DNA of 64,000 nt from IMG/VR virus record IMGVR_UViG_3300038678_000044. One strand, given 5' to 3'. This DNA comes from an uncultured virus (IMG/VR IMGVR_UViG_3300038678_000044) (lineage: Duplodnaviria; Heunggongvirae; Uroviricota; Caudoviricetes). Below are positions 7,501-58,724 of this stretch, in pieces; the stretch's first letter is position 1; each line of letters starts with the position of its first letter. The notes under the pieces were generated by a model. It did no database searches and was not told where the DNA came from. It was given only the letters and a program-made list of their open reading frames with translations. The translations under genes were made by a program, and so were the position numbers.

Positions 7501-10500
7501 GAGCAAGCTACTCCGCTACCAAAGGTTCAGATCGTCATGGAGGAGGATGAGGTCTCCGATATGGAGGTCTTCAGGTCAGACGTTACCGAATCACGCAGTT
7601 CAATCAGGGCTCGTCTGGAGGCAGTACAGCGCCGTGTGAAGGAGCCCAAGAGCCCAGAGCAGGCTGAGGCTGGCAACTATCCGAAGGGACACATGCTGGT
7701 TGATTCGCTTCCGGTGACGATCGAGACCAGGAAGGGCGGCACCAGGACCGGCATCGATCGGAAGGGTAAGCCATGGTCGTTCAAGATGAAGGATCCCTAC
7801 GGCTACATCAAGGGCACCCAGAGCAGGGAGGCTGATGGTCGAGGTGGCTTTGATCAGATCGATGTCTTCATCGGCCCGTACCTGGATTCAGGCCATGCGG
7901 TGATCATCAACCAGAAGAAAGATCCGAAGAAGCCGATGTCCCTGGAGAACTTCGACGAGCATAAGATCATGCTGGGCTACCGGGATACCCTGGAAGCTGA
8001 GGCAGCCTACCGTCGCAATTACACGGACGGTGGCGCACAGATGGGCTCAGTGGTCGCGATGACGACCCAGGAGCTGCGTGAGTGGCTGGAGACTGCCAAC
8101 ACGAAGACGCCTGCCGTTATATCGGAGGTGGTGTTCGTACCTGGTAGAGGCGACGTGGACTTCCGTCCTTTCCAACCGGCCATTGACGCAGCTCTCGCTT
8201 ACACGGCAGCAAACGACATCGAGTACGAGCCAGCGAAGGAGCGAGCCCAGCTCGATACTGTCAGGGCTGCGAAGATCGCGAGAGAGTTCGATGTCATGGA
8301 GCATGCCCCGGAAGATCCAGAGGTCCAGGCGGCTTACCAGGCGATGATCGACGAGACCCTGGCTCAGTATGAATACATCCTGGAGAGCGGCCTGGAGGTC
8401 GAGTTCATTGTCGGCAAGGATCCATACACCAGCCCCAGGGATGCGATCCTGGACATCCAAGAGAACAATCACCTGTGGGTCTATCCCACACGAGAAGGCT
8501 TTGGATCCAGGGCTGAGTTCGAGGCTATCAATAATCCGCTGCTGAATGAGACTAAATACAAGATTTCCGGCAAGGTGGCCCTGGCGAACGACATATTCCG
8601 TGCGGTCCATGATTACTTCGGGCACCTGGCGAATGGCTTTGGCTTCCGTGCCAGGGGCGAGGAGAATGCCTGGCAGCACCATGCGGCCATGTATTCCCCG
8701 CTGGCCAGGCGAGCCATGACCGTGGAGACCAGGGGCCAGAATAGCTGGGTCAATTACGGACCTCATGGTGAGACCAACCGCACAGCGTCGGCGGCTGACA
8801 CCGTGTATGCTGATCAGAAGATCGGGCTCATGCCAGTCTGGGTATCCGAGGAGGGTAGATTAAGTGCCAAACGCCAAATTATTGAGAGCCGCCCAACAGA
8901 GGATGGAGAGCTTGTTGCCCCACCAGTCTCGACAGAAGGGCGCATCACGCTCACGCACTTCAGCAGCCGACCCAACATCGAGCGGATCGATCCCAGCTTC
9001 TACGGGCAAGGCATCCGGGGAGCGGAAGGGCAAAGGGCGCAAGCCAGGCCGGAAACCTGGATCGACCGCACCTACTACGGGGTCGCACCGGGCATTCCAG
9101 GTGGGTATCGGAAGGAATCGGGACTAGGTTCTGAGACCTATACGACGAGCGTCGATGCTCGTCTCATGTATGACCTCCAGGCTGATCCAGAAAGCCTGGC
9201 AGAAACTCCAGATCTTAATGAAACCGAACGGGCAATCCGTGATGCCGGTTACTCTGGCTATTGGCTGAAGCATCCAAGCCTGGGCCTGGTTGCGGCTTCT
9301 TTCGATCCACTCGAAGTCGAAGCAAAGAAGGGGCCATCAGCCAGGGCCAGGTTGAAGACCAATGGCAGGACCAGGCGCTTCACGGTTGAAGAAGTCCAGG
9401 GATTCCTGAGACCAGTCTATTCGATATTCCGCACAGTCCGACCAGTCCATGTCGTCGAGGCCATCGAAGATCTGCCACCGCACCTCCAGGCAGCCATGGA
9501 GGATGAACACTCGAAGCGCAACACCACTGGCATGTATGACCAGGGCGCTTTCAACGATGACATCTACATCATAGCCAACAACATCACCTCCATGGAGGAG
9601 GCGATCGAGACGTTGCTGCATGAAGTGGTTGGTCACTTCGGGCTCAGGCAGGTCATTCCGCCATGGCGATTCGACGAGTTCATGGACATGATCGCGAAGT
9701 CGTTCCCCAAGCAAGTCAGGGAGATAGCCAGGGAATACAGTCTGGATTGGAATGACACCGCTGAGCGCCGGATTGCTGCGGAGGAGTTCATCGCTCATAC
9801 CGCGCAACGCATCCTGGCTGGTCAAACAGTCTCGCAGAAAGCAAAGGAGATCCTGACCAAGATACTCGATGTTCTTGCCAATGTGGTTCGCTGGGCGACT
9901 GGTAAGGATCAGATGTTCACCAGCGGGCAGCTCATGTCGATCATCGCTCAGTCGAGCGACTTCGTGCAGAAACCAGGTGGATACCAGAGATCGAAGCAAC
10001 GAGGCCGACTGCGACACGTCAGCGCACCGTACTTCTTCTCAGCGGTATGGAAGGTATTCAACGAGACCGAAACCAAGTCCACTTCAGCAGAAGGCTGGAA
10101 GCAATTCATCACGTCCCAGATCAAGAAGGGCAAGATGAAACAGTCTGAGCTGGACTGGATGGGCCTGGAAACTTTCCTGGAGGATGCAACCTGGGGAGGT
10201 CTGTACGCACTCACAGGAGGCAAGTGGGCAACAGGGAAAAGAGATTTCGAGGATGTAGAAGCCATATTCCCCAAACCAATGTTCGAGATCTACAAAGAGC
10301 AGCGCGAGCTTGGTGCGGAAATCCAGTCGATCAAAGAAAAAGCTGACCGACTTCGGAAGGAGGCTTTTTACCTGGAGTTCCCGGAGACCGCAGAATTGGT
10401 GGCGAAGTGGAACAATGAAGCCATAGCGTTCAGGGACAAATGGAATGAAGAACATCCGGCAGAGCAGTCCCTTCCTGTCAATGAGCAGCGTGATCTTGCT

Positions 10501-13500
10501 TTGGATGAGGAGCGTCATGATGACCTAACCAAGGAGCTGGAAGTCTTCGCTAAAACCAAGCCGAAGAAAATTCCAGTGCAAACAATTCAATCGTTCATCG
10601 AGCGCAACGGTGTAGACATCGATGTGAGGGAGCCTGGTGGAGACAGGGATGCAGTGGAATTCGACAGTGAAGAAAATCCGGATGAGGAGTCTGAGCCGGA
10701 TGAAGATGATTGGTATGAACACTGGCAAGAAATCGAGCAGAACCAATGGGACAGCTACTATCCAGGTGCCTTGTCAGAGGTCCATGCAGAGCATGACTGG
10801 GATCCTGATCTCGAACCAGATCCAGATATTCCTGAAGAATCAGATATGGACATCACGGAGCTGAACACTGTTCTCGGTGTCTGGGATGGCACTGACGAAG
10901 AAAACATGGATGATGAAGCCAGCGATAAAGCCAGGGAGGCTATTGAAACTGATTACTACGAGGAGGCTCGTGACGAGTGGGTTCAGAAGAATACGGACAA
11001 GATGTGGTACTCAGGCGAGTATCAAATTCGCACAGACAATGAAGGCGATTTCATTGTCAGTCACGAGGGATACGAGCTTGGTGGGTATCACAGTAATTTT
11101 GATGACGCAGTGGCTCAAGCCGAAGAACATGGCCTAGAAACCACTTCTGGCTGGGCAGATTATATGCTCAAGCCTACGGGCGACGGATACGAGGTATTGT
11201 TGTTCCGTTGGGAAAATCCAGACACGGAGCTTTTCACTGAGACTTCTCACTGGGAGCATGACGATAACTTCGTCGTGCATGTCCGCTTCGACATTCGCAA
11301 AGACCCAGACGGTAACGATGCGTTCTACATCGACGAGATGCAATCTGATTGGCATCAGTCGATAGGCAAGGCAATTAAGGCTCGGTTAGACGAAATTCAT
11401 AAGGAACACGGCTTTAATCCTGACCACTGGAATGGTGATGGGACGTTCGGTGGTGGAGAGGAATACGATGGCACTGCACCAGCGGTAATGTATGAGCAGG
11501 CCAGGCTGGAAGCCCTGAAGAATCCAAAGCAGATGGTAGAGTTGGCCAGGGTTGCTAAGGAAAAATTCCAGTTTCTGAAAGAGAATAAGCAGACTCTCAT
11601 TGATGACCTGAAAGCAATGCCGATGGATCGCCACCTCGCTTCGTTTCTCAGGGACTCGAACACTGGCGATGACTCGACTTCTGGTAACAGGCTGCTGGCG
11701 AAGTATTTGTCGATGATAAAAGCCAGAGAAGCTGACGCGATTACGCTTGAGATCGATCTGGATCAATCCCTTCGGCCAGAAATGTTCGAGAAGCATGGTT
11801 ACGTCGAGTACATGAGCGAAGACCTGAACAAGCTCTTTGCAGCTTATCGAGAGATCAGGCCGCAATTCGCCACTGGTACAGAGGACGATCCGAATTTAGA
11901 GCGCATGTCTGCTTTCCCTGGTTTCCAAGACGAAGTTAATAAGCGAGCGAAACAAAAATTTGGTCTTCAACAAGTATTACGTTTGAAGCTCGGCCAGGAT
12001 CCGATACGTTTTATTGAAGACATCTGGATGACTGGAGTGCTTCCGGAAGGCTGGCAAGTCGGAGAGTTGAAGGATGCAGTAACCAGGCCGCATGAGCTAC
12101 CTCCATACGATAAAACTCCTCTCAAGAAGCTGGAGGATGAAACTGGTGCTTTTGCCAAAGAAGAATTGGGCAGGAGAGTCAAGGACGCTGAGTCAAGAGA
12201 AGCCGGACTTGATCCCACCAGCAGCATAGGGAAGTGGGCATCTATTCAGAAAGGTGAACACGAGCAAGATATGTGGCAAAGGATTTCCGGTCAGTGGGAT
12301 CGTACTCAGTTGGATTGGGAGTTGACTGATCTTCCGGATCTTTTTAGGACTTGGGGCAACATATCGCAGCAGATGGAGCAAACCGCCAGCATTACCAGAG
12401 GCATCGAGGCAAATGAAACTGAGCCGCTGCCATTCGGTGTGATTGATTATTCCTTCAGTAGGAAAAAACGCGACACCATGAGAAGACGTGTTCTGAGCTT
12501 CAATGAAGCTAAGGGCGCTCACGAGAGAGTCGCCAATGGCCATACCTTTGCGCCATTCGAGAAGGACTATCAGCTCCTGGTAATCAAGCACATGATCGCT
12601 GAGGCGCAACGACGAGGCCACAAAAGGCTCTACTTCAGCAAAGGCGAAGTTCATGGTGTGCGTTGGAGTGGTGCCCAGTCAGTTGAAGCTGTCAAGTTTG
12701 TGAAACATGCGTTGCCACCTGCAAAAGACGATCCCAATTTAGAGTTGTTCAGCGGAGAGCTGGCACCAGTTGGTAATGAGTATCCGATCACAATCGTTGC
12801 CATGCCTGGTTCCACACGCATTATAGAAACTCGTGACAGGCACGTAAGAAAGATTGTTGGCGATCGTGTCGCTAAAAAAATTATTGATTCACCGGAGGCT
12901 GAAGGCTACATCTCCGCAGAGGACGTGGGGCTTGAAGGCATCTTGTTGCCAACGGAAAGCAGTGGCAGGTATTTGACCGGATCCAGAGTGATCTATAACC
13001 AGGTCGCCGTTAATCAAATCAACAAGTTCCTGAAGAAATTCAAAGGCAAGGTAAAGGATACCTGGGTGCCTGGTACTAGCAGCCAGCCAGATCGGGAAAA
13101 GGTTGAGCAGCAGGGGCTTGCCACTTTCGGTGAGCGTTCAGATAGGGGGAAAAGGTTAGATGCTGCCAGGCTGCGTCGTCTGAGAACGTCAGAGGTAGTG
13201 GAGCATGTTGCAGGTGGGCTAAACAGCCAGCTATGGCTGCGATCACAAGAATACGATGACAAGGCGAACGCTGGTATCTGGGGCATCGACATGCCCGATA
13301 AAGATGGCCTTATGAATTTCGACACCAGTCTTGGTTTCTTCGACAGCCTGGAACGAGCGAGGGTAAAGCTGGAGGAACTGATCAAGGCCGAACACGGACG
13401 CAACTGGGGATACGAAGCGTTCGAGATTGAGATTACACCGAAGCTCCAGGAAGCAGCGAAGAATGGATTCCCGCTATTCCACAAGCGAGGCAAGCCGAAG

Positions 13501-16413
13501 ACCGGCGACAAGGGCCTGGACGATGCACTGGACTGGGCGAATGAAAACATCGGGTCATCAAAACGACGATCGCTCAAACTTCTCTGGGAGAAAATCAATC
13601 AGATCCTGCGGATAGAAAACAAACAGGAGAAGATGGAACAGGCCATGATTGATCAGTTCGCTGGTCTCAAGTGGGCCCTTCGTCAGACACATGGTTACGA
13701 TCTTCCTGCTCAGATTTCAGCGTATAAGCAGGCGCATTTCACGACCAGTGTTGATTCGCAGATGTACGTGTTCCTGACGCATGGCATTCCTGAATGGCAA
13801 ACCGTAGCGACCGCTGAGGGCACTGGAACGATCACAGGCATCAAGGAAGGAAGCAAAGGACTGCTGGAAGTCTGGGAGCCGATAGCAGACAAGATGGAAC
13901 TCTGGGGCTACTGGATGGCTGCCAGGCGAGCGGATCGGCTGTTGAAGGAGGGCAGGGAGGCTTTGTTCAGCCAGGAGCGCATAGATGAGCTGCTGAAGCT
14001 GGGCGATCTGTTCCCGCTATTCCATGATGTAGCGGCTGAATATGCGGACTGGAATAGCCAGTTCCTGGATTGGGCCTCGGAGGCTGGTGTCATCAACGAA
14101 GATACCAGGAAGCTCTGGGAGCATGCGGACTATGTGCCGTTCTTCCGCATCAAGTCCGACGAGATGGGCGGATCCTTTGCCAAGAAAGCTGGCATGGGAG
14201 GCCCAGGAATTGCCAATGTAACGCAGCCAATCAAGCGCCTCCTGGGATCGAAGCATCCGCTGGGCGACATCATGGAAAACATCCTGGTCAACTTCCAGCA
14301 CATCGCAGCTACGACGATGAAGAACAAGGCTGCCCAGCTCGCAGTAGAAAATCTCAAAGACTCTGGCCTGCTAACGCCAGCCAAAGGTATGGACTTCTTG
14401 AAGGAGGAGTTCATTCCTATGGATGAGCTGAAGCGCAAGCTGAAGCAGGCAGGTGTGGACTGGGAGGCCATGCCTGACGAAGCGTTACAGGGCATGCAGA
14501 AGATGTGGACCTTGCAGCAGCCGCCTGGCGACGACTTCATTTCGGTGCTTTACAACGGCAAGAAGAAATGGTTCCAGGTCCACGAGGAAACATTGCTGAG
14601 ATCTCTCACAGCAATCAACGAAAGGAAATTCGCAAGCGTGATTGGTCGCATGTTTATGTGGCCACTCAGAAAGTTCAAGCGCCTCGGCACCACCATGATC
14701 ACACTCGCTCCAGATTTCATGGCGGCGAACTGGTTCCGAGACATCTTTATGGCATTCGTGAACTCACGACACACTAAATTTCCTGCGGTTTGGTCGGCAG
14801 CGACTGGAGCCTGGAAAGCGTTTACGAAATCGCCTGAGATGGTGAGCATGATGGCTGCCGGTGGCGCTTTTTATTCTGGGTATATCAATGCCAACGATCC
14901 TGTCTCGACGACCAAGGCGATGAAGCGAGCCCTGCGTCAGACAGGATTCAAGAACCGTATCCTGGATGCACCATGGAAGCTGTTCCACTTGTACAACGAC
15001 ATCGGTGCAGCATCCGAGAATGCCAACAGAATTGGTGCCGGATACATTCCGGCAATCAGAGCTGGTGCTGGTAAGGCGGAGGCAATCTGGGAAAGTAAGG
15101 ATCTGATGAACTTTGCCAAGCATGGTGATCATGCCCTGGTGCAGTTCTTTGCTCAGTCAGTGATGTTCCTTAATGCCAGGGTACAGGGCATGGTTCGATA
15201 CGGTCAGCGATGGTCAGAAGCTCCAGGGCTGACGTTCACCAAGTCGATGATGTATGCCATGGTTGTGCTGGCGATCTGGTTGAAGAACAAGGATGACGAT
15301 CGATACAAGGCATTGCCTAACGACGACAAGGATATGTACGTCCACTTCTGGACTGGCGGGAAGCACTGGAGGCTGCCGAAGTCATTCGAGGTAGGCATGA
15401 TTTTCGGTGTCGGAGTCGAACGCACGTTCGAGTATTACTACTCCAATGAGGATGATGCCGGTAAGGTCGCGATCGATCGCATGTGGTGGGTGATGGGCGA
15501 GGTATTCAACTTCTTCAATCGAGAGACGCTTTTTCCGTTGCCGCAAGCTGTTGCTCCATTGTTTGAGGCGACGAACAACTGGAACGCTTTCTTCCAGTCA
15601 CCGATCGTGCCGGAGTACATGCAAGACATAGCTGAAGTGAAACCGGAGATCGTCTTTCGTCCGACCACCAGTCCGACAGCTCGTGAGCTGGCTAAGGGTA
15701 TGCCGAAATGGGCTCCAGCTACGCTCAGAAATCCAATGCTGCTTGAGCATCTGACTCGTGGTTATTTCGCGACCCTGGGCGCTTACGTGATGATGTTGTC
15801 CGATGACCTGGTGCGGAAGTCATTCGATTACCCAGCCAGGCCAGATCTCAGGTGGGACAAGATCCCGGTTGTCAGGCGCTTTTACACTGGCGAGGATCCA
15901 CCATCGAGAACCAGCTACGAGGAGATCGTCTACCAGGTACGGGGAAATGCCCGGCAGATCGAGCGAGCTGTCAACAAGATGGAAGACCTGGAAATGGACG
16001 ATGAGATTGATGCGTTCATGGAGGAGCCCTCGAAATACGATCCGACTTTCACCAATGAAGAAGTCGTCGAAGCAGCCAAAGCAATGAGGTTCAGCTACGA
16101 GGAGATGAAGGCAATCCGCAAAGAGATAGCGGAGCTGTGGGAAGACGAAAATATGAGCGGCGAGGAGAAGGGGCGAGAGCTGAACAATCTCCTACGCGAC
16201 AAGCTGGATGCTGCCAAGGAGGGTTACATGGAGCGACCGGGCGCGTCTATCCAGTTCGAGGCATTGCAAGAAACGCTGATCGATATGATTCCAGGTGATC
16301 AAGTGGATTACCTGGCAGAGCAGGGCCTTGGCCAAACTTTGGATCTGCTGGCCTCATTACCTGTGAAGCCCAGCACACGACTGCAACGAATTTTGACGGA
16401 GAACACAGCCTGA
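4588..16413 (+). CDS. Giant polyvalent ejection protein (ART-like x2, InPase-like, HExxH metallopeptidase, LPD38-like)
   Basis: 3941 aa. Motifs: VWRG..TLNIKNP..GFDG..EYRIFNPEQ (ART-like); GNYPKGH..YGYIKGT..DQIDVFIG..FDEHKIMLG (InPase-like); FRAVHDYFGH; LLHEVVGH..AEE; EMQSDWHQ; RLPKSFEVG..PIVP (LPD38-like). Confidence 0.8.
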   Translation: MAKLSIISEEDEEQAEPLGAKLSIIEEADDIEAPAPVPTGLSIAKEEVDPQSPLTTIDVGSPEEPGFFTRALDSFQAWRDDFSTAPANKFTREEAEEITKQNIKMNREMFSNKGGGQFSFGDDKPVPHSALVRAGLEEPPEDEVEHALIEHMGGTKSPDGRLKAEREQWAKYPKDQNGFVIDPTRPIVQNPDGSSSSELSITIEVGGRWFNIPSMVNGKQVSQEQAIESARSWAKKGWIHPNFATVEEAEEAAGARSDYLLTARDEWKNRKPDEPKEPEEEKEEDPWGDVIWTNVSNVPHQWRAQYGGAKMWLNAPRDLAYILEAASDQGVAPENSFALEVEAYVRGKDPAEYYGELLKEAKDNADLQEGLRIYEEESKYLQGHQPNVNEDSIKYYAGAIVGGALNMAPMLVASAVTRSPTVGAAIMGGQVFADQYASSIKAGRSHSQAVMDGTVVASAEILTERIPLGILTKEGGTLLKRMLKAGGAEAIQEPITQVIQEAYQVGIVDDEMTFGEALYEIFSTEEGRAMMRRSAIIGFGVGGVLAASVHPFYKDMVDQGEDPTKPGWVDLPETGPGGKPIKRRKKGITPSETNAKITTEEAEELGLVEVDVSVELLERVAAGDPLTIDEQYTLTNNGYGKFIGADERVMLLPKGRQELTELRDKAAGEEIIMEGDEVTIRKAGEAIDIAAPVEPGEKPRRAQRAMEEFAKIQDQYPAAMSRIDAKLKTQVIDQWQQLSREKIDQVMVIFDELETLPEGEDSTKQQQRLKFILEEAQKAAQEPPDEEGDVVDTEGRKIVVWRGEHGLREDQDEEFQSLVGSLSFGSLKTAQTYALEPNDLTRQRIAQDPRVRGYTLNIKNPIVNTPEDPFIDLAQVRRKLGKKGVTQVLKDHSEDIMNTGKWQDEFADEYDSPAQVAEKSPERMDSLYFEIFQFLDNPRLVEMARKAGFDGAIHMGYGENFDDIEYRIFNPEQATPLPKVQIVMEEDEVSDMEVFRSDVTESRSSIRARLEAVQRRVKEPKSPEQAEAGNYPKGHMLVDSLPVTIETRKGGTRTGIDRKGKPWSFKMKDPYGYIKGTQSREADGRGGFDQIDVFIGPYLDSGHAVIINQKKDPKKPMSLENFDEHKIMLGYRDTLEAEAAYRRNYTDGGAQMGSVVAMTTQELREWLETANTKTPAVISEVVFVPGRGDVDFRPFQPAIDAALAYTAANDIEYEPAKERAQLDTVRAAKIAREFDVMEHAPEDPEVQAAYQAMIDETLAQYEYILESGLEVEFIVGKDPYTSPRDAILDIQENNHLWVYPTREGFGSRAEFEAINNPLLNETKYKISGKVALANDIFRAVHDYFGHLANGFGFRARGEENAWQHHAAMYSPLARRAMTVETRGQNSWVNYGPHGETNRTASAADTVYADQKIGLMPVWVSEEGRLSAKRQIIESRPTEDGELVAPPVSTEGRITLTHFSSRPNIERIDPSFYGQGIRGAEGQRAQARPETWIDRTYYGVAPGIPGGYRKESGLGSETYTTSVDARLMYDLQADPESLAETPDLNETERAIRDAGYSGYWLKHPSLGLVAASFDPLEVEAKKGPSARARLKTNGRTRRFTVEEVQGFLRPVYSIFRTVRPVHVVEAIEDLPPHLQAAMEDEHSKRNTTGMYDQGAFNDDIYIIANNITSMEEAIETLLHEVVGHFGLRQVIPPWRFDEFMDMIAKSFPKQVREIAREYSLDWNDTAERRIAAEEFIAHTAQRILAGQTVSQKAKEILTKILDVLANVVRWATGKDQMFTSGQLMSIIAQSSDFVQKPGGYQRSKQRGRLRHVSAPYFFSAVWKVFNETETKSTSAEGWKQFITSQIKKGKMKQSELDWMGLETFLEDATWGGLYALTGGKWATGKRDFEDVEAIFPKPMFEIYKEQRELGAEIQSIKEKADRLRKEAFYLEFPETAELVAKWNNEAIAFRDKWNEEHPAEQSLPVNEQRDLALDEERHDDLTKELEVFAKTKPKKIPVQTIQSFIERNGVDIDVREPGGDRDAVEFDSEENPDEESEPDEDDWYEHWQEIEQNQWDSYYPGALSEVHAEHDWDPDLEPDPDIPEESDMDITELNTVLGVWDGTDEENMDDEASDKAREAIETDYYEEARDEWVQKNTDKMWYSGEYQIRTDNEGDFIVSHEGYELGGYHSNFDDAVAQAEEHGLETTSGWADYMLKPTGDGYEVLLFRWENPDTELFTETSHWEHDDNFVVHVRFDIRKDPDGNDAFYIDEMQSDWHQSIGKAIKARLDEIHKEHGFNPDHWNGDGTFGGGEEYDGTAPAVMYEQARLEALKNPKQMVELARVAKEKFQFLKENKQTLIDDLKAMPMDRHLASFLRDSNTGDDSTSGNRLLAKYLSMIKAREADAITLEIDLDQSLRPEMFEKHGYVEYMSEDLNKLFAAYREIRPQFATGTEDDPNLERMSAFPGFQDEVNKRAKQKFGLQQVLRLKLGQDPIRFIEDIWMTGVLPEGWQVGELKDAVTRPHELPPYDKTPLKKLEDETGAFAKEELGRRVKDAESREAGLDPTSSIGKWASIQKGEHEQDMWQRISGQWDRTQLDWELTDLPDLFRTWGNISQQMEQTASITRGIEANETEPLPFGVIDYSFSRKKRDTMRRRVLSFNEAKGAHERVANGHTFAPFEKDYQLLVIKHMIAEAQRRGHKRLYFSKGEVHGVRWSGAQSVEAVKFVKHALPPAKDDPNLELFSGELAPVGNEYPITIVAMPGSTRIIETRDRHVRKIVGDRVAKKIIDSPEAEGYISAEDVGLEGILLPTESSGRYLTGSRVIYNQVAVNQINKFLKKFKGKVKDTWVPGTSSQPDREKVEQQGLATFGERSDRGKRLDAARLRRLRTSEVVEHVAGGLNSQLWLRSQEYDDKANAGIWGIDMPDKDGLMNFDTSLGFFDSLERARVKLEELIKAEHGRNWGYEAFEIEITPKLQEAAKNGFPLFHKRGKPKTGDKGLDDALDWANENIGSSKRRSLKLLWEKINQILRIENKQEKMEQAMIDQFAGLKWALRQTHGYDLPAQISAYKQAHFTTSVDSQMYVFLTHGIPEWQTVATAEGTGTITGIKEGSKGLLEVWEPIADKMELWGYWMAARRADRLLKEGREALFSQERIDELLKLGDLFPLFHDVAAEYADWNSQFLDWASEAGVINEDTRKLWEHADYVPFFRIKSDEMGGSFAKKAGMGGPGIANVTQPIKRLLGSKHPLGDIMENILVNFQHIAATTMKNKAAQLAVENLKDSGLLTPAKGMDFLKEEFIPMDELKRKLKQAGVDWEAMPDEALQGMQKMWTLQQPPGDDFISVLYNGKKKWFQVHEETLLRSLTAINERKFASVIGRMFMWPLRKFKRLGTTMITLAPDFMAANWFRDIFMAFVNSRHTKFPAVWSAATGAWKAFTKSPEMVSMMAAGGAFYSGYINANDPVSTTKAMKRALRQTGFKNRILDAPWKLFHLYNDIGAASENANRIGAGYIPAIRAGAGKAEAIWESKDLMNFAKHGDHALVQFFAQSVMFLNARVQGMVRYGQRWSEAPGLTFTKSMMYAMVVLAIWLKNKDDDRYKALPNDDKDMYVHFWTGGKHWRLPKSFEVGMIFGVGVERTFEYYYSNEDDAGKVAIDRMWWVMGEVFNFFNRETLFPLPQAVAPLFEATNNWNAFFQSPIVPEYMQDIAEVKPEIVFRPTTSPTARELAKGMPKWAPATLRNPMLLEHLTRGYFATLGAYVMMLSDDLVRKSFDYPARPDLRWDKIPVVRRFYTGEDPPSRTSYEEIVYQVRGNARQIERAVNKMEDLEMDDEIDAFMEEPSKYDPTFTNEEVVEAAKAMRFSYEEMKAIRKEIAELWEDENMSGEEKGRELNNLLRDKLDAAKEGYMERPGASIQFEALQETLIDMIPGDQVDYLAEQGLGQTLDLLASLPVKPSTRLQRILTENTA

Positions 16414-37315: not shown

Positions 37316-37635
37316 GGACCAGGGTCATTAAAGTAATTAGAGGAATTGTGATTGCAGACAGGATGTCATTCAGAGTGGCAACTGAGGAGTTCAGGAAGCG
37401 TGACTTCGGAATGACCAGGCTGGACACAGCCAGGAAGCTCCTCGATGAATATCTACATCTAAAAGTGGAGGGCATGGCGACCATGCAAGTGATCCCATTG
37501 GGTGATGTGTGCGAGGTCCGATTGCGTTCGGAATGAGACAGGTGAAAGTGTACCGACCATGCAGGTATCATAAGAGCCATCCGACACATCCTCGGTGGGC
37601 CGATTGCGGCTGCCGGGAGACAATGGAGTATGTGC

Positions 37636-38319
37636 GTGAGCGCCCCAGCGGAAGCAATCGAAGTAATCCCAGGCAACACCAGAGGCTGGCCACGAACTAA
37701 ACTGCAACTGGACTTTGCTCTGAACGTAGTTCAAGAGGCAATGAATCCACATGCGGCAATGATCGCTGCTGGCTACGCCAAGAACAGCTCGAAGGTTAGA
37801 TCTCACGAGCTGGCTGCCAATCTTCGACCGTTCATGGCATTTCTCCAGGAGAAAAAGAATGAGGTGGCGGCGATCCACTACGATGCGACGACGACCAGGA
37901 TCCTGCATGAGATGTCAGCGATCGGTCTTCAGAACATCAAGGATTACATCCGAGTCGTGAAGGTGGATAAAGTGCTGCATCTTATCGGTAGGCCGGTAAA
38001 CGAGCTGACTGATTCCCAGGCTTTGGCTGTTGCATCCTGGGAGAGCCATCTGATCCAGACGGATGATGGCCCTGATTTCGATTTCAAATATGTGCTGCAT
38101 GACAAGGCCAGTGCCCTGGTAAACCTGGGTCGGCACCTGGGCATGTTCTCAGAGAAGCTGATGCTGGATCTCAATATGCGTCAGAGCCAGGCGAGATCCC
38201 TGGACTTCAGCGCCTTGCCGCAAGACGAATTGGAGCTTGTCATCAAGACCCTGGAAGGTATTCAGCAGAAAGCCTCGAAGGCCAGAGCAATCGAAGGGGA
38301 ATCGCACCGAGTCGATTGA
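37636..38319 (+). CDS. terS: Terminase small subunit
   Basis: AMIAAGY, ILHEMSAIG and LHDKASALVNLGRHLGMF. GTG start 7 nt after GGAG. Confidence 0.85.
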   Translation: MSAPAEAIEVIPGNTRGWPRTKLQLDFALNVVQEAMNPHAAMIAAGYAKNSSKVRSHELAANLRPFMAFLQEKKNEVAAIHYDATTTRILHEMSAIGLQNIKDYIRVVKVDKVLHLIGRPVNELTDSQALAVASWESHLIQTDDGPDFDFKYVLHDKASALVNLGRHLGMFSEKLMLDLNMRQSQARSLDFSALPQDELELVIKTLEGIQQKASKARAIEGESHRVD

Positions 38320-41219: not shown

Positions 41220-41384
41220 ACAGAGGTGGGAGCGTAACGGACGACGCATCCTCGATCTGGAAACTGGAGACGCTGAGGTTTACGACACATTCAATGGGGC
41301 CAAACGGACAAGCCGTGCCCTTCAGATGAAGAACACGAAGGCCCTTGGGCGCGGCGACATGAAATTGAAACGAAGGAGATGGAT

Positions 41385-41975
41385 ATGAAACGATTTATAC
41401 CACTGATTTTGCTAGTATTATCAGCCACTAGCGGGGCTGCTATCGTCAACCTGGAATGGACGAACGCAACGCAAAATGTTGATGGGACACCGATCGTGGC
41501 AGCAGGTCCAGGATCTTTAGCGACGACGAAAATTAACTGGGGCGCTTGCAATCCTGATGACACACCAGCGGAACCGTTGCTCGAAAAATTTGTGCCGACG
41601 ACAGTGCCAGGTGCGAGTGAAACGACAGACATCACGATCTGGACACCTGGTCGATGGTGCTTTCTTGGTTACCATATAAACGTAGGTGATCCTGCCAACA
41701 GCATTGATCCGCAAACATCTGACGCATCGAATCCAGTATTCAAGATGATCATCATGGTGCCGCAGCCACCAGATAACCTGGTGACAGTTGCGATGGTGGC
41801 TTACCAGGTGATCGCTCAGAATAATAAATTTGTGCTACTGCCAGTCGGTGAAGTGCCAGGCGGAACAGCATGCACGGAGACCGAGATGGTCAAGGATCAT
41901 TTCGTTGTGCCGAGAGAAGCGGTTAGCTGGTACGGCGATGTTGAGCCATTAGCAGTCGTAGCGAAATGTGGCTGA
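41385..41975 (+). CDS. Secreted fibronectin-III/Ig-like protein
   Basis: MKRFIPLILLVLSATSGA signal peptide; LEWT..NVDG, PGRWCF and PQPPDNL motifs. Confidence 0.6.
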   Translation: MKRFIPLILLVLSATSGAAIVNLEWTNATQNVDGTPIVAAGPGSLATTKINWGACNPDDTPAEPLLEKFVPTTVPGASETTDITIWTPGRWCFLGYHINVGDPANSIDPQTSDASNPVFKMIIMVPQPPDNLVTVAMVAYQVIAQNNKFVLLPVGEVPGGTACTETEMVKDHFVVPREAVSWYGDVEPLAVVAKCG

Positions 41976-42081: not shown

Positions 42082-42393
42082 ATGACAATGAGCGCAACGC
42101 TGGGATGGATACTTCCCACAGAGCGAGAAAGCAATAATCCTTTGCCAGAGACTGCGATTAAAGAAAGTATCATATCGCTCAAGGTCACTGGCGCTCCGGA
42201 TTTTACCGAGATGGATCGAGTTCCGTCACCAGGTAATTCGCATCTGCTTCCAGACCTGGCGGATGGGACTTACGCCTGGCAAGTGGAAATTGTCGATCAA
42301 GCAGGGAGGAAGTCCGGACCAGCGGAGCAGACCTTTGTAATCGATGATAGTCCACCGAAACCAGCGACAGGGTTGACCGTCGATCTAAGTTGA
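42082..42393 (+). CDS. Fibronectin-III/Ig-like single-domain protein
   Basis: TLGWILPT..LADGTYAWQV..D.AG..S..PKPATGL. Confidence 0.6.
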   Translation: MTMSATLGWILPTERESNNPLPETAIKESIISLKVTGAPDFTEMDRVPSPGNSHLLPDLADGTYAWQVEIVDQAGRKSGPAEQTFVIDDSPPKPATGLTVDLS

Positions 42394-42620
42394 TGAACAG
42401 ACGGAGGTTTATCAGAGCTTTTGCTGGCGCGGTTGCGACGGTAGCGATCGGCATGCGGATGGCCAGCCCGATGCCGCGCCTGGATTTTAATGAGGAAAAC
42501 GTCGAAGCTATTGCGATCAAGTACAAGGCGACCATGCGAGTCTCTGGCTGGAACAACTATGACTGGCGAGCGGTGTACGGAACGCCGAGTGGGCTGGATG
42601 GTGTCTATGAACAGGCGTGA
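42393..42620 (+). CDS. Tat-leader protein carrying the capsid C-terminal fragment
   Basis: MNRRRFI plus h-region. YKATMRVS..DWRAVYGTPSG resembles capsid YKARERYS..DWRGAYGSPGG. Confidence 0.75.
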   Translation: MNRRRFIRAFAGAVATVAIGMRMASPMPRLDFNEENVEAIAIKYKATMRVSGWNNYDWRAVYGTPSGLDGVYEQA

Positions 42621-42930
42621 TTTCATAGTCAGTGCGCTGGGTGCTGCAACGATGGCAGCCCTGCCTGCGAAGAAAGAAGCAACACTGCTTCACGATGCAG
42701 CGCATCACGAACTCAGCGGTGGATTCGGTCTTGCTACAGTCAAACAGGAAGGCGCGTCCATTGCTTACGATCAGGTGGGTCAGCGGTATGCAAGGGCTCT
42801 TGCCGTGTCGATGAGGCAGACCAGGGAGATTGTCGCCAGGAATGTTTTGGGGAGAGCGTTCGATGACGAAGACGAGACAGAAGACGGATACACGTACCGT
42901 ACATTCAAAGTCAGAAAGATCATCATCTGA
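42607..42930 (+). CDS. Tat-leader protein carrying capsid N-proximal fragments
   Basis: MNRRDFI plus h-region. GFGLATVKQEGASIAYDQ and YARALAVSMRQTRE match capsid aa 52-69 and 102-131. Confidence 0.8.
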   Translation: MNRRDFIVSALGAATMAALPAKKEATLLHDAAHHELSGGFGLATVKQEGASIAYDQVGQRYARALAVSMRQTREIVARNVLGRAFDDEDETEDGYTYRTFKVRKIII

Positions 42931-43129
42931 TGAAATTGAATCCCTTCGAGAGTGTAGTATTTGTGGAGGCCCATTCGATCTCGAAAGGGAAGGTGGGAGC
43001 GAGGGCAATATAGGAATCTTGCCGGTGGCTTTTTGCCCCACTTGCAGGGTAGGGATCCTGGAGTACGCTGAATTTCAGCAGCCAGGATTCGACTGTCCGC
43101 ACTGCGGGGAGTACATCGGAGAGGAGTAG
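42830..43129 (+). CDS. Small zinc-ribbon protein
   Basis: Three CxxC motifs. Start uncertain. Confidence 0.5.
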   Translation: MSPGMFWGERSMTKTRQKTDTRTVHSKSERSSSDEIESLRECSICGGPFDLEREGGSEGNIGILPVAFCPTCRVGILEYAEFQQPGFDCPHCGEYIGEE

Positions 43130-43335: not shown

Positions 43336-43623
43336 ATGAGTAGGCCAGAGATCGGCAAGATCGTCGAGCTTTCCACACCGTCAGACATCGCTGAGGTGTC
43401 GATCGAAGAAGCCTGTGAGCTTGTCCAGGCTGAAGGCACCGTACCCAGGATCCTCGCGTACAACATCGATGACTACACCAGGTACGGCACTCAGATCGAT
43501 CACCTGGGCTTCAAGTATGGCATCACACCAATGCTGGATTCGTCTTATCAGGATGGCGAGTGGGCTATCCACAATCTGAAGGAAGGCGATGAGCGTGTCA
43601 CCTGCTGGAATCCAGCACCATGA
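43336..43623 (+). CDS. Protein with a capsid-like internal segment, no Tat leader
   Basis: LSTPSDIAEVSIEEA resembles capsid aa 159-173 LATAADLAEASLEQA. Confidence 0.6.
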   Translation: MSRPEIGKIVELSTPSDIAEVSIEEACELVQAEGTVPRILAYNIDDYTRYGTQIDHLGFKYGITPMLDSSYQDGEWAIHNLKEGDERVTCWNPAP

Positions 43624-47560: not shown

Positions 47561-49153
47561 GTGGTCGCAGACCCTTTATCAGTCCAGGAAGCAGTAGCCG
47601 AGTACAAAACTCAAGCCCAAGCTGAGTTCTATCGGAGAGATCTGAGAGAATTTGTAGCGGCTGCTTGGTCGATCGTTGAACCTAAACCGTTCAAGACCAA
47701 CTGGCACTTAGACGCCATCTGCGACCACCTCGCCTATGTCACGTTCGGTGACATTCGCAATCTCATGATCAACATCCCGCCCAGGCAGACCAAGAGCCTG
47801 ACTGCGAGTGTGCTGTGGCCGGTATGGGAGTGGCTGCTGGATCCTGGGGTGCAATTCTTGTTTGCTTCCTATGCTCAGGAACTTGCTATCCGAGATGCAG
47901 TAAAGTCTCGTCGGCTGATCGAGTCAGCCTGGTTCAAGCAGCGGTATTCAGGTGCCTTCTACCTGGATCCAGCGGACAACAGGAAGAATCGCTACGTCAA
48001 CAACCATGGTGGTCATCGCATCTCCGGCTCGATCCTGGGTAAGGCGACAGGTGAAGGTGGCGACAAGATCTGCATCGACGACCCGCACAACATGAAAGAC
48101 GTGTACTCGGACACGATCCGGTACAACACCCTTTCGACCTGGGACAATAGCCTGAGATCACGCCTTAACGACCCAACCACAGGCCAGAAGGTGCTGATCG
48201 GCCAGCGGTCGCACGACGCTGATCTGTTCGGTCACATCCTGGCCAGCGAAGACGAGCGATGGGAAGTGCTGATGCTGCCGATGGAGTTCGATCCAGCCAG
48301 GAAGTGCATCACGTTCTTCAACAAGGGCAGGGGCCATCAGACCAAGAAGGGCCCGTTGTTCGAGGATCCCAGGGAGAAGAAAGGCGAGCTGCTGAATCCG
48401 CAACGCTTTGGTGAGGAGGAGAGGAAGGCCGAGACCAAGGCAATGTCCGTGAGGGACTACAGCGCCCAGTTCAACCAGGATCCGACATCCGGTGGTGGCC
48501 TGATCCTGAAGAAGAAGTGGTGGCAGCAGTGGTGCTTCCCAGAGGATCATCCGGAAGCTGGCAAGCCGATGCCACACCCAGAGTTTATCGAGGTCATCTC
48601 GTTCTATGACACGGCATTCGAGGAGGATGAGGAGAACGACTGCTCTGCCAGGATCACTGCTGGGCTGTTCGAGTATTCACCGTCAGGCCGGGAGATCGAT
48701 ACCGAGGTTCATGCGTTGCTGCTGGAGCGGTTCAACGATCGAGTGGAGTTCCCTGATCTCAAGACCGAGGCGATAGCCCACAATGTTCAGTGGAGCCCTG
48801 ACCGAACGCTGATCGAGAGGAAGGCCAGCGGTCACTCACTGATCCAGGAGCTGCGTCGAGCTGGCGTTTCTATCTGGGGAGTGAATCCAGGCACCAAGGA
48901 CAAAGTATTCAGAGCGCACATGGTTGCCCAGGTGCTGAAGGAAGGTCGGCTGTGGTACATCCCCAGGAACTGGGCCTACGAGGTGATCAATCAGTGCGCG
49001 ACCTTCCCGGTCGGTGAGAATGATGACTTGGTGGATTGCATCGTGATGTTGCTTGGATACATCCGTCGCCTGGGCCTGATGGAACTCGACGACGACGAGA
49101 AGATGGACGAGATGAAACTGTTCAGCCAACCGAGGAAGTTCTATGGAGCGTAG
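47561..49153 (+). CDS. terL: Terminase large subunit
   Basis: NIPPRQTKS Walker A, GEGGD..IDDPH, YDTAF, IERKASG and FPVGENDDLVD. Confidence 0.95.
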   Translation: MVADPLSVQEAVAEYKTQAQAEFYRRDLREFVAAAWSIVEPKPFKTNWHLDAICDHLAYVTFGDIRNLMINIPPRQTKSLTASVLWPVWEWLLDPGVQFLFASYAQELAIRDAVKSRRLIESAWFKQRYSGAFYLDPADNRKNRYVNNHGGHRISGSILGKATGEGGDKICIDDPHNMKDVYSDTIRYNTLSTWDNSLRSRLNDPTTGQKVLIGQRSHDADLFGHILASEDERWEVLMLPMEFDPARKCITFFNKGRGHQTKKGPLFEDPREKKGELLNPQRFGEEERKAETKAMSVRDYSAQFNQDPTSGGGLILKKKWWQQWCFPEDHPEAGKPMPHPEFIEVISFYDTAFEEDEENDCSARITAGLFEYSPSGREIDTEVHALLLERFNDRVEFPDLKTEAIAHNVQWSPDRTLIERKASGHSLIQELRRAGVSIWGVNPGTKDKVFRAHMVAQVLKEGRLWYIPRNWAYEVINQCATFPVGENDDLVDCIVMLLGYIRRLGLMELDDDEKMDEMKLFSQPRKFYGA

Positions 49154-51721: not shown

Positions 51722-54223
51722 ATGGCAGCCAGAGCGGATCTTTTATCGACCATGAAGCCGATGCCGACCTTCACGGAGACTGAGCAGGTCACCGCGAAGA
51801 ACATCATCACGCATAACGAAGATGGCACGATCTCGATTGTTCCGAAGGGTGAGATCGCTGAGTACGCTGACGTTGATCACGATGAGGAGACACCGGAGGG
51901 TTGGAACGACAACCTGGCAGAGGAGCTGTCTCCCCAGGAACGAATCGCAATCGCGGACGAGCTGATCGAATACTACGAGATCGATGAGCAGGTTCGCGAG
52001 GAGCATTTCGAGCGGCTGACCGATGGGCTCAGGCTGATGGGCTTGACCGACGAGCCAGCCTCAGATGTACCGTTCAAGGGTGCGGCCACCGTGCAGCATC
52101 CACTCATCGCTGAAGCTGTGACGCAGTTCCAGGCACGAGCGATTGAGGAATTCTTCCCGCCCCAGGGCCCGGTCAAGGCTTACATCATGGGTGAGGCGAC
52201 CGACGAAAAGGTGGCGCAGGGGAAACGTCTCGAAGACTACATGAACTATCAGCTCACTGAAGCCGACGAGGAATACTTCTGGTCCACGGATCAGATGCTG
52301 TTTTATCTCCCCCTTTCAGGATCTGCATTCAAGAAGGTCTACATCGATCCCATTACCGGCATGACTACGAGCAGATTTGTTACTGCTGAGGATTTCATCG
52401 TTCCGTATCATGCGCGAACTTTGGCGAACGCACCTCGGTACTGTCACAAATATGAGATGCCGGAGAATGATGTATTCAGGGCCCAGGAGGCGGGATCTTT
52501 CATTGCAGATGCCAGGCTGTTGCCGACACCGCAGATCCTGGTAGACAAGAACACCAGCTTCTCCAGGTACGACCTGGAGGACGTGGCCGACGATCGCAGT
52601 CCTCAGCAGCATTACGACGACACGATCTACACGATGCTGGAGTACCACATCGATTACCACATGCCCTGGGACGAAGACTCAGACATAGCGCCTCCGTATG
52701 TCGTCACGGTCGAGGCCGAGTCTCGCGAGGTCATGGCAGTCAGGCGGAACTGGAAGCACGACGATCCGCTGATGAAGAAGCGAATCTGGTTCACGCATTA
52801 CAAGTATCTCCCTGGCCTTGGTTTCTATGGCTTTGGCCTGCTACACATAATTGGCTCACTAGCGAAAGCTGTCAGTGGCGGCATCCGTGCCCTACTCGAC
52901 AGTGCAGCAGTGGCAAACCTTCAAGGTGGCTTCAAGAGCAAAGAAGCCAAGATTGCTGGGGAGATACGTTTTACACCGGGCGAGTGGATCGATGTCGATA
53001 TGTCCGCCGACGAGCTGGAGAAGGCATTCTTCAACCTGCCGGTCAAGGAGCCATCGACTGCACTCGCTAACCTGGTACAGACGCTCGTCGATGAGGGCAG
53101 GCGATTCGCCACCACCACTGAGAACATGGTTGGTGATGCCAAGAACACTGGACCAGTGGGCACGACCCTGGCGCTGATCGAGCAGGGCTCGAAGGTATTC
53201 AGCGGCATCCACAAGCGCATGCACGTCTCTGCCAGGCAAGAGTTCAAGATGATGTCCCAGTTGAACTACGAGTTCATGGACGTGGAGGAGTATCCCTACG
53301 AGGTCCAGGGTGAGGAACGCACGATCCTGAAGTCGGACTTCGATGGTCGCGTAGACATCATCCCGGTCTCGGATCCGAACATCTGGTCAGCGACTCAACG
53401 CATTGCACAGAACCAGGCAGTGCTGGAGTTGATCACCGCAGATCCGGAGCTGTATCCGAAGAAGCAGCGCAAGATCGCGCATCGACGAATGTTCGAGGCC
53501 ATGCGGATACCGGACATCGATCAGATCCTGCCGGAAGACACGGATGCACCACTGGATCCGGTGAGCGAGAACATGGGCTTCCTGGTCGGATCGGCTGCGA
53601 CCGTGTATCCACTCCAGGATCACGAGGCGCATATCGCGGTCCACATGAATTTTGCAGAGCAGCAAGCAGCGGAGAATCCTGACCTGGTAGCCAACCTGGA
53701 GCCAGTGATCCAGGCGCATGTGATGGAACACAAAGCCTACGTTTATCGGCAACAGGTCGAGGCCGAACTGGGTACGCAGTTGCCATACATCAACCTGGAT
53801 GATCCGAGTGACAACGAAGACTTGCCACCGGAGCTGGAGAAGCTGATCAGCCAGGCTGTTGCTAAGAAGCTCAAGCCTCCGCCTCCGCCTGCACCGACAC
53901 CTGAAGAACAGGCGGAGCAGGATCAGCGTCAGCGCGAGGAAGATGAAGCCGACCTGGAAGTCATCGGCAAGATCGAGCGCGGTAGAGCAGAGAGCGCAGC
54001 CGGGATTGATCGCAAGGACGAGGAGTCCGAAGCAGAGCAGGAGCGCAAGGACAAAGAATCAACCGCTGAGGGCAAGCGCAAAGACACAGAATCGAGAGCC
54101 GAAGTTCGTCGCCAGGACAAGTTAGCTCGCGCCAAGGCCACGTTTGGAAAGGGGCCTGTAAGCGTACCAAGGGGAAAGACCAGCAAGAAACGGAAGACGA
54201 AACGTGGCAGTAGCAAGTCCTAA
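51722..54223 (+). CDS. Portal protein (P22-like)
   Basis: HPLIAEAVTQFQA, LPLSGSAFKKVY, PGLGFYGFGL, PVGTTLAL and DIIPVSDPN. Confidence 0.9.
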   Translation: MAARADLLSTMKPMPTFTETEQVTAKNIITHNEDGTISIVPKGEIAEYADVDHDEETPEGWNDNLAEELSPQERIAIADELIEYYEIDEQVREEHFERLTDGLRLMGLTDEPASDVPFKGAATVQHPLIAEAVTQFQARAIEEFFPPQGPVKAYIMGEATDEKVAQGKRLEDYMNYQLTEADEEYFWSTDQMLFYLPLSGSAFKKVYIDPITGMTTSRFVTAEDFIVPYHARTLANAPRYCHKYEMPENDVFRAQEAGSFIADARLLPTPQILVDKNTSFSRYDLEDVADDRSPQQHYDDTIYTMLEYHIDYHMPWDEDSDIAPPYVVTVEAESREVMAVRRNWKHDDPLMKKRIWFTHYKYLPGLGFYGFGLLHIIGSLAKAVSGGIRALLDSAAVANLQGGFKSKEAKIAGEIRFTPGEWIDVDMSADELEKAFFNLPVKEPSTALANLVQTLVDEGRRFATTTENMVGDAKNTGPVGTTLALIEQGSKVFSGIHKRMHVSARQEFKMMSQLNYEFMDVEEYPYEVQGEERTILKSDFDGRVDIIPVSDPNIWSATQRIAQNQAVLELITADPELYPKKQRKIAHRRMFEAMRIPDIDQILPEDTDAPLDPVSENMGFLVGSAATVYPLQDHEAHIAVHMNFAEQQAAENPDLVANLEPVIQAHVMEHKAYVYRQQVEAELGTQLPYINLDDPSDNEDLPPELEKLISQAVAKKLKPPPPPAPTPEEQAEQDQRQREEDEADLEVIGKIERGRAESAAGIDRKDEESEAEQERKDKESTAEGKRKDTESRAEVRRQDKLARAKATFGKGPVSVPRGKTSKKRKTKRGSSKS

Positions 54224-57812: not shown

Positions 57813-58724
57813 ATGGCTATGAATCGAAGCGACTTTCGCAAACAGTTGCAGGAAGGCTTGAACGCAGTCTTCGGAATGGAGTACAAGCGGTATCCAGAGG
57901 AGTGGCGCGACATCTTCGACATCGAGCGATCGATGAAAGCATTCGAGGAAGACGTGTTGCTCGCAGGATTCGCTGGTGCGCCAGTTAAACCTGAAGGCGA
58001 AGGCGTGGCATACGACCAGGGCGCAGAGAGTTACGTTGCCCGATACACGCATGAGACGATTGCGTTGGCATTTGCAATCACCGAGGAAGCTGAAGAAGAT
58101 GGCTTGTACGGAAGTCTTGGCAACAAGTATGCGAGAGCCCTTGCACGATCTCTCCAGCACACCAAGGAAGTCAAAGGTGCTGACATCATCAATAACGGTT
58201 TCGACGCAGGTTTCCTTGGCGGCGACGGAGTTCCGTTGTTTTCACTGCTCCATCCGCAATTCGGTGGCGGTAACCAGGCTAATACCCTGGCCACGGCAGC
58301 CGATCTCGCGGAAGCGTCTCTTGAGCAGGCGGCGATCGACATCTCAGAGTTCGACGACGACCGTGGCATCCCGATTGCAGCGCAGATCACAAAGCTGATT
58401 GTTCCGACAGAACTTCAGTTCGTGGCTACGCGGATCCTGATGTCACCGTATCGCACGAACACTGGCGATAACGACATCTCTGCCATCTACACTCTCGGCA
58501 CAGTCGGTGACGGTTTCTGCGTAAACCACCGCTTGACTGATCCAGATCAGTGGACACTCAAGACAGACTGCCCTGATGGCCTAAAACACATGCTGCGTAA
58601 GAAGGTTTCTCGTGGAATCGAAGGCGACTTCGAGACCGGCAACCTTCGTTACAAAGCTCGCGAACGGTACAGCTTCGGCTGGTCCGATTGGCGTGGTGCA
58701 TACGGCTCGCCAGGTGGCGCGTAA
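57813..58724 (+). CDS. Major capsid protein (HK97 fold, Mu gpT-like family)
   Basis: GLNAVFG, EG..VAYD, AFAITEEA.ED, DGVPLFS..HP and YKARERYSFGWSDWRG. Confidence 0.9.
   Translation: MAMNRSDFRKQLQEGLNAVFGMEYKRYPEEWRDIFDIERSMKAFEEDVLLAGFAGAPVKPEGEGVAYDQGAESYVARYTHETIALAFAITEEAEEDGLYGSLGNKYARALARSLQHTKEVKGADIINNGFDAGFLGGDGVPLFSLLHPQFGGGNQANTLATAADLAEASLEQAAIDISEFDDDRGIPIAAQITKLIVPTELQFVATRILMSPYRTNTGDNDISAIYTLGTVGDGFCVNHRLTDPDQWTLKTDCPDGLKHMLRKKVSRGIEGDFETGNLRYKARERYSFGWSDWRGAYGSPGGA

Follow-up and report, generated by a model that had tools for sequence, protein, structure and literature searches.

Twin-arginine-type leaders joined to rearranged capsid-protein pieces at a fast-changing phage locus

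Two capsid mosaics between terS and terL

The window, i.e., the whole 64,000-nt stretch of DNA analysed here, covers most of one tailed phage genome. It carries terS (37630-38319), terL (47561-49153) and the portal gene (51722-54223), and also codes for DnaB, RecT, a YqaJ-like nuclease and SSB. The phage DnaB has its nearest counterparts in beta- and gammaproteobacteria, with no more than 43-45% identity, which assigns no host. A 3941-aa protein (4588-16413) with InPase and LPD38 domains is probably an injected internal virion protein.

This phage's major capsid protein (MCP; 57813-58724, + strand) is a 303-aa Mu gpT-like protein with an HK97 fold, according to PF10124 (E 3e-6), phrog_371 and its structural model. 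The nearest cultured MCPs, from Roseobacter phages CRP-901/902, phage DSL-LC04 and Pelagibacter phage HTVC023P, share 54-56% identity with it. The model (pLDDT 84) matches 1ohg by Foldseek (E 7.6e-12) and 9gb0 by VIA-align (Z 16.2, rmsd 4.2, 244 aligned); PDB sequence searches with the MCP, and with the family of gene 43336-43623 (see below), gave no significant match. Predicted strands 44-51 and 71-79 flank residues 52-70 in the model, and a long predicted helix (99-127) comes next. By HK97 topology, the first region would be the E-loop tip and the helix the spine helix, and hairpin 257-290 would lie in the P-domain, its turn forming the P-loop. This mapping agrees with that of the preliminary description of the locus, which had also credited both elements with subunit contacts. 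The E-loop is an inter-subunit arm; for the spine helix, subunit contacts are doubtful as the main role, since it serves largely for core packing.

The mosaic genes, with other small genes around them, occupy the interval from terS to terL and share the strand of the head genes; a promoter/terminator scan gave counts at chance level (10 vs. 7.6 and 10 vs. 9.1). The first mosaic protein, P0002 (42393..42620, +; 75 aa), consists of a Tat-like leader followed by a copy of the C-terminal MCP piece 269-302 (score 71, with 0 of 2000 shuffles as high; profile probability 97.3). Its gene overlaps by 14 nt that of P0001 (42607..42930, +; 107 aa), which we dissected further. P0001 begins with a twin-arginine-type leader (aa 1-21, 42607..42669) with an RR-x-F-I motif, an uncharged h-region and a modelled helix at aa 3-17. 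A variable linker without MCP match (aa 22-38, 42670..42720), His-rich in most members of the family, leads to a copy of the E-loop tip, MCP 52-69 (aa 39-56, 42721..42774), and then to a copy of the spine helix, MCP 102-131 (aa 57-86, 42775..42864; modelled helix 57-84). The two pieces are identical to our phage's MCP at 11/18 and 12/30 positions, and to the MCP of another locus, L012, at 13/18 and 23/30. A relocated, degenerate copy of MCP strand 77-89 (42886..42924) closes the protein, in a region overlapping the start of the next gene (ATG 42863).

The local alignment of P0001 with the MCP of its own phage scores 85 (shuffle mean 30.5, maximum 63; 0 of 2000 shuffles as high), and the profile-profile alignment (hhalign) reaches a probability of 99.3. 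Judged from its sequence, P0001 is thus a descendant of an MCP, and the two segments reported by the preliminary description withstand the shuffling check. Their direct junction had been described as a clean internal deletion: the junction stands, its cleanness does not. The family's C-terminal 13-mer, taken from the 19 aligned proteins out of 23 that have the motif, scores best at MCP 77-89 among all offsets (mean 5.1 bits, runner-up -4.5), a score reached by 0 of 200 column shuffles, though the best shuffle also rounds to 5.1; most of the signal comes from relatives (P0008, 21 bits; P0014, 22 bits), P0001 itself scoring 0.0. The fit of this tail to MCP 77-89 therefore suggests that part of the "deleted" stretch was relocated rather than lost.

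The image of a "mini-capsid" had to be abandoned. Only the E-loop tip, the spine helix and a degenerate strand are present in P0001, the complete HK97 fold (N-arm, E-loop, P-domain, A-domain) being absent, and the P0001 model (23-sequence alignment) contains two helices and no confident fold (pLDDT 50, pTM 0.21), which therefore makes it the wrong picture. The protein also carries a Tat-like leader, which the preliminary description omitted, and the family shuffles its capsid motifs freely (see below). P0001 matches no family at curated level in Pfam, PHROG or NCBIfam, libraries of described families only.

By a TatFind-like rule, both leaders have a twin-arginine motif followed by a hydrophobic h-region. 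For P0001, PF10518 gives E 8e-4 and 19.7 bits, against a cut-off of 22.7, and TIGR01409 gives no match; the P0002 leader scores 16.6 bits with TIGR01409, against a cut-off of 16.7. A third RR leader in the window belongs to P0003 (40518..41219, +; 233 aa). We rejected this protein as an MCP derivative, as 896 of 2000 shuffles score as high. P0003 is conserved in siblings (dN/dS 0.19-0.40), and a four-residue unit is briefly repeated in tandem in it, a feature missing in relatives; the ESM Atlas gave no usable match for P0001 or P0003.

Downstream of the mosaics, a leaderless 95-aa ORF (43336..43623, +), found in seven sibling loci, window included, reproduces MCP 158-174 (22 aligned columns; hhalign probability 58, E 1e-4). 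By eye, the whole product may resemble a mini A-domain; beyond the first motif, this likeness has no statistical support, 44 of 150 shuffles scoring as high. Just upstream of the mosaics lie two Ig/fibronectin-like genes (41379-41975 and 42082-42393), the first with an apparent Sec-type signal in its product; their position and their conservation in siblings suggest an envelope-directed gene cluster. In several siblings, the start of a Cys-rich zinc-ribbon gene (42863-43129) is overprinted on the sequence coding for the mosaic's acidic tail.

Family breadth, cassette turnover and selection

P0001 has 22 homologues (23 matches including itself, among 32 candidates) and P0002 has 12 (13 matches among 13 candidates, counting itself). 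When 1.84 billion representatives were searched with the profile, 248 matched at E<=0.001. The best 150 of these 248 comprise 92 proteins of 64-221 aa with an RR leader, 90 of which carry at least one MCP motif and 49 at least two; in 37 of these 49 multi-motif proteins, the motifs are out of MCP order. Most of the remaining 58 of the best 150 are MCPs, full or partial; a few are mosaics with a truncated leader or chance matches. When 136 candidates were scanned for nine MCP motifs, 129 carried at least one, in 25 arrangements, and 0 of 680 shuffles passed for any motif. The E-loop (79) and the spine (68) are the commonest, a dominance that arises by construction because both are in the search profile; motifs from the N-arm, the G-loop region, the A-domain helix and the C-terminus were also recovered, though they lie outside the query core. 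The spacing from E-loop to spine varies from 14 to 38 residues, or the order is reversed, and dozens of clusters below 50% identity share the design of a leader followed by MCP pieces. Such freely shuffled modules fit linear epitopes better than a fold, as far as their sequences indicate.

The leaders of the family show an N/K/D-R-R-x-F-I/L motif and an uncharged h-region with a median of 14 residues. The TatFind-like rule selects 132 of the 136 candidates, partly by construction because they were prefiltered on RR-x-F/L/V; with TIGR01409, 41 of 66 scanned proteins match and 19 pass the cut-off. Six mosaics (P0038, P0043, P0055, P0075, P0083 and P0095) have in common a conserved C-terminal 18-residue motif.

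In the cultured phage collection, 13 records match P0001 (including Caulobacter phages GB2A/RW, Roseobacter CRP-901 and Alcaligenes QDWS535), all of them inside MCP genes and none through a mosaic. Using a degenerate DNA pattern, we retrieved 3 stretches from viral contigs, all real, and 120 from metagenomes, mostly chance matches, with six more distinct mosaic loci; none of the 103 stretches from prokaryotic genomes passed the ORF and profile filter.

The locus changes fast. We compared eight loci (the window, L003, L004, L006, L194, L215, L398 and L420): in the corresponding interval, siblings have from one to three mosaics, differently combined, and the cassettes differ among phages whose MCPs are 97% identical, which is the behaviour of fast-turnover accessory loci. 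In L398, a leaderless ORF (G007; 1946-2170, -) combines an N-arm piece, a C-terminal motif and a predicted hydrophobic/transmembrane C-terminal helix. Its N-arm piece is identical at 33 of 36 nt to the MCP gene of the same phage; by this sequence match, capture of MCP DNA is ongoing. A C-terminal hydrophobic helix in place of the leader suggests that membrane targeting is the common aim and would be a second route to it. At locus L099, MCP pieces of the own clade type occur in one RR-leader ORF, and another RR-leader ORF includes part of the protein whose gene follows that of the MCP (E 0.0076). The ORFs observed there (1610-1882 and 2639-2941) include this association of an RR leader with a post-MCP piece and a leaderless ORF beginning with N-arm and C-terminal MCP motifs. 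Another ORF, at L004 (6825-7166), joins an RR leader to a beta-rich-looking passenger, maybe from a tail protein, without match among the fetched loci.

The location in the packaging and head region, on the strand of the head genes, and the self-type pieces of siblings would suit a part played by the mosaics in building the phage's own heads, as helpers or minor components that, for example, tether proheads to the membrane or tune assembly. We hold this to be quite improbable: cassettes vary between phages with 97% identical MCPs, the P0001 pieces are not of own type, and of five related records examined by profile search, two have mosaics and three the MCP only (two of these three being less than half complete).

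Both P0001 and P0002 are under purifying selection, with dN/dS of about 0.2-0.4. For six genes of the P0001 family, dN/dS is 0.17-0.38 in 15 of 15 pairs, and the single pair available for P0002 gives 0.27; MCPs of the same lineage, 97% identical, give 0.03-0.04. Outside overlaps, pN/pS is 0.43 (95% interval 0.32-0.56), the interval for the leader extending to 0.96. Open frames have been maintained over dS 0.4-1.8. These values, the 22 homologues and the dozens of clusters below 50% identity with the same design already largely refute the notion of non-functional recombination debris. It would draw on the RecT and YqaJ-like nuclease of the phage, on the fresh capture of MCP DNA and on the lack of a fold in P0001, and we give it very little credence.

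Constraint is spread along the P0001 family: dN/dS is 0.20 in the leader, 0.50 in the linker, 0.18 in the E-loop piece, 0.21 in the spine piece and 0.39 in the tail. The E-loop tip and spine-helix pieces retain the invariant MCP residues. Among 20 close members, the better a column is conserved in the MCP, the better it tends to be conserved in the mosaics (rho 0.60, 47 columns), so that MCP-likeness itself appears to be maintained. These results weigh against another explanation, in which the leader does the work, by occupying TatBC, disturbing the inner membrane or causing superinfection exclusion, and the capsid pieces are filler from nearby, highly expressed DNA. In its favour, the leader is the best-conserved region (column conservation 0.87 vs. 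0.80), P0003 and the L004 ORF have a leader without recognised capsid passenger, and adjacent genes appear exported or Ig-like. However, MCP pieces as constrained as the leader, with their invariant residues kept, and mosaics that have no leader make this explanation unlikely.

Origin of the capsid pieces

The preliminary description proposed a different phage's MCP as donor or target. We found that the 48 MCP-derived residues of P0001 match at 36 positions the MCP of L012, from a group that we call clade B, and at 23 the MCP of the same phage, which ranks 134 out of 149 as a match; matches range from 21 to 27 in the own clade and from 27 to 36 in clade B, a comparison biased because clade B was collected with P0001-family patterns. 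The P0002 motif, which lies outside the selection of clade B, fails to discriminate (21 vs. 19 bits; 7 vs. 8 of 13).

Phylogenetic tests gave a mixed picture. With free trees, AU tests do not reject a group made up of the own clade and the mosaics (p 0.57, 0.39 and 0.34; search noise of about 5 log units). When the mosaics are placed on a fixed backbone, for which identity thinning reduced the 149 MCPs to 50, a position within the own crown clade is rejected (delta lnL 20-30 and p 0.0002-0.04 over the displayed edges; p-AU 0.006-0.007 for P0001 and about 0.01-0.04 for six members), and placement on the stem of this clade is not (p 0.43-0.52). An origin before the crown would be unlikely, because the mosaic changes about 10 times faster than the MCP and would hardly keep 75% identity to any MCP. 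Our reading is that the P0001 cassette probably came from another or unsampled MCP lineage. None of 108 longer candidate proteins matched P0001 aa 36-100 at E<=10; this search did not reveal the true donor MCP.

A foreign donor lineage, as proposed, is thus favoured by identity and by fixed-backbone placement, with one non-rejecting test and a biased comparison set; the foreign target is another matter, as it does not follow from a foreign donor. Such a target is invoked if the mosaics are weapons against competitors, their pieces binding the folding or assembling MCP of co-infecting phages of other clades and poisoning the shell or dragging subunits to the membrane, while the diverged MCP of their own phage is spared. 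The closeness of P0001 to the L012 MCP, the rejection of the own crown clade and the function of the E-loop as an inter-subunit arm are consistent with this. Against it, the self-type pieces of siblings, i.e., the G007 N-arm piece and the own-clade-like pieces of L099, should poison the capsids of the phages that encode them, clade B was gathered with P0001-family patterns, and neither the own-clade stem nor the free-tree grouping is rejected. We judge it rather unlikely; if rival capsids were poisoned, the mosaics would be a new phage-versus-phage weapon.

Candidate decoys for capsid-sensing immunity

From the observed anatomy, selection, family breadth and cassette turnover, we favour, with a probability of roughly 0.45, the interpretation that P0001 and P0002 are membrane-routed capsid-epitope decoys against MCP-sensing immunity. 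Decoys fit best with copies of the most conserved capsid motifs that are selected, unfolded and shuffled, and with predicted membrane routing and a fast-changing locus. Recombination would capture short conserved MCP motifs behind a twin-arginine leader, and the two proteins, whose genes share the terS-terL interval and the strand of the head genes, would be made together with head proteins. Their partners in the host would be proteins, in all likelihood immune sensors, by which nascent MCP monomers are recognised. A sensor bound in this way would stay inactive, since a second activating surface is missing, and the leader may carry the decoy, possibly together with the sensor, across the inner membrane by the Tat channel or as far as that membrane.

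Several precedents bear on these steps. In Thoeris (PMC12578639), ThsB1 binding requires the MCP E-loop and ThsB2 activation requires the P-loop of the same monomer; in the window, the E-loop piece (P0001) and the P-domain hairpin piece (P0002) are on separate polypeptides. DSAD1 is described as inhibiting DSR2 by occupying its tail-tube site (PMC11087589). By analogy, it may share with the decoys the logic of occupying the sensor site of a virion protein without activation. The mosaics differ as copies of trigger sequences in interchangeable combinations; DSAD1 is not known to have trigger pieces or an export leader. Partner proteins without a signal can be exported via Tat (PMC10924467). Besides Thoeris ThsB1/B2, plausible targets are the MCP-sensing systems Avs7/8/10 and Dsr1 (10.64898/2026.01.04.697583) and CapRel SJ46 (PMC13728456).

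Other observations speak against decoys. Avs7, 8 and 10 are reported to bind the folded A-domain via extended shape-complementary surfaces (10.64898/2026.01.04.697583), rather than the pieces present in P0001. The P0001 pieces are closer to a foreign clade than to the MCP that needs shielding, and the P0001 leader falls below curated cut-offs. Moreover, export would leave a cytoplasmic sensor behind unless the decoy is retained or the sensor is carried along. Finally, the Thoeris precedent comes from Staphylococcus, an unrelated host.

The mosaics differ from the known proteins that they recall. Mu gpT-like HK97 MCPs (PF10124, phrog_371) are their source of motifs, with invariant E-loop tip and spine residues in common, but the mosaics hold only about 60 of 303 residues, rearranged, without A-domain, P-domain sheet or fold, and with an export-type leader added. 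Satellite capsid-interference proteins (P4 Sid, PICI size-redirection proteins, PLE TcaP) are small folded satellite scaffolds acting on another phage's capsid, whereas the mosaics belong to an autonomous phage, consist of fragments of MCP origin and begin with Tat leaders; this class was set aside, the window encoding terminases, portal, MCP, helicase and the 3941-aa protein. The mosaics share motif and h-region with Tat signal peptides (PF10518, TIGR01409; PMC10924467). Known Tat substrates are folded host proteins, whereas the passenger here is short, viral and apparently unfolded, its export being predicted. Our literature search, which covered few subscription papers and beyond which supplementary gene tables could list some, returned no description of Tat-leader capsid-fragment proteins. 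The capsid mosaics with Tat-like leaders are real, under selection and absent from the papers searched.

A broader version of the decoy interpretation, which we regard as doubtful, would make the locus a renewable combinatorial library of virion-protein epitopes, from the phage itself and from others, behind Tat leaders, with the sensor or rival subunit removed from the cytoplasm by hitchhiker export. This would be a natural counterpart of the engineered Tat co-export trap FLI-TRAP.

If the mosaics are decoys, the captured fragments map the capsid surfaces that the immunity of uncultured hosts reads, and can serve as baits for fishing out undiscovered sensors. They would also reveal a counter-defence design, trigger fragments with host export routing, that is absent from the literature searched, and a means by which rearranged parts of structural genes become new phage genes. 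The family also suggests a possible role for small phage proteins annotated solely by a Tat signal. In a different genomic setting (L183, 136-1041, -), motifs of the E-loop or the A-helix occur in a cluster of several small ORFs, of which some are leaderless.
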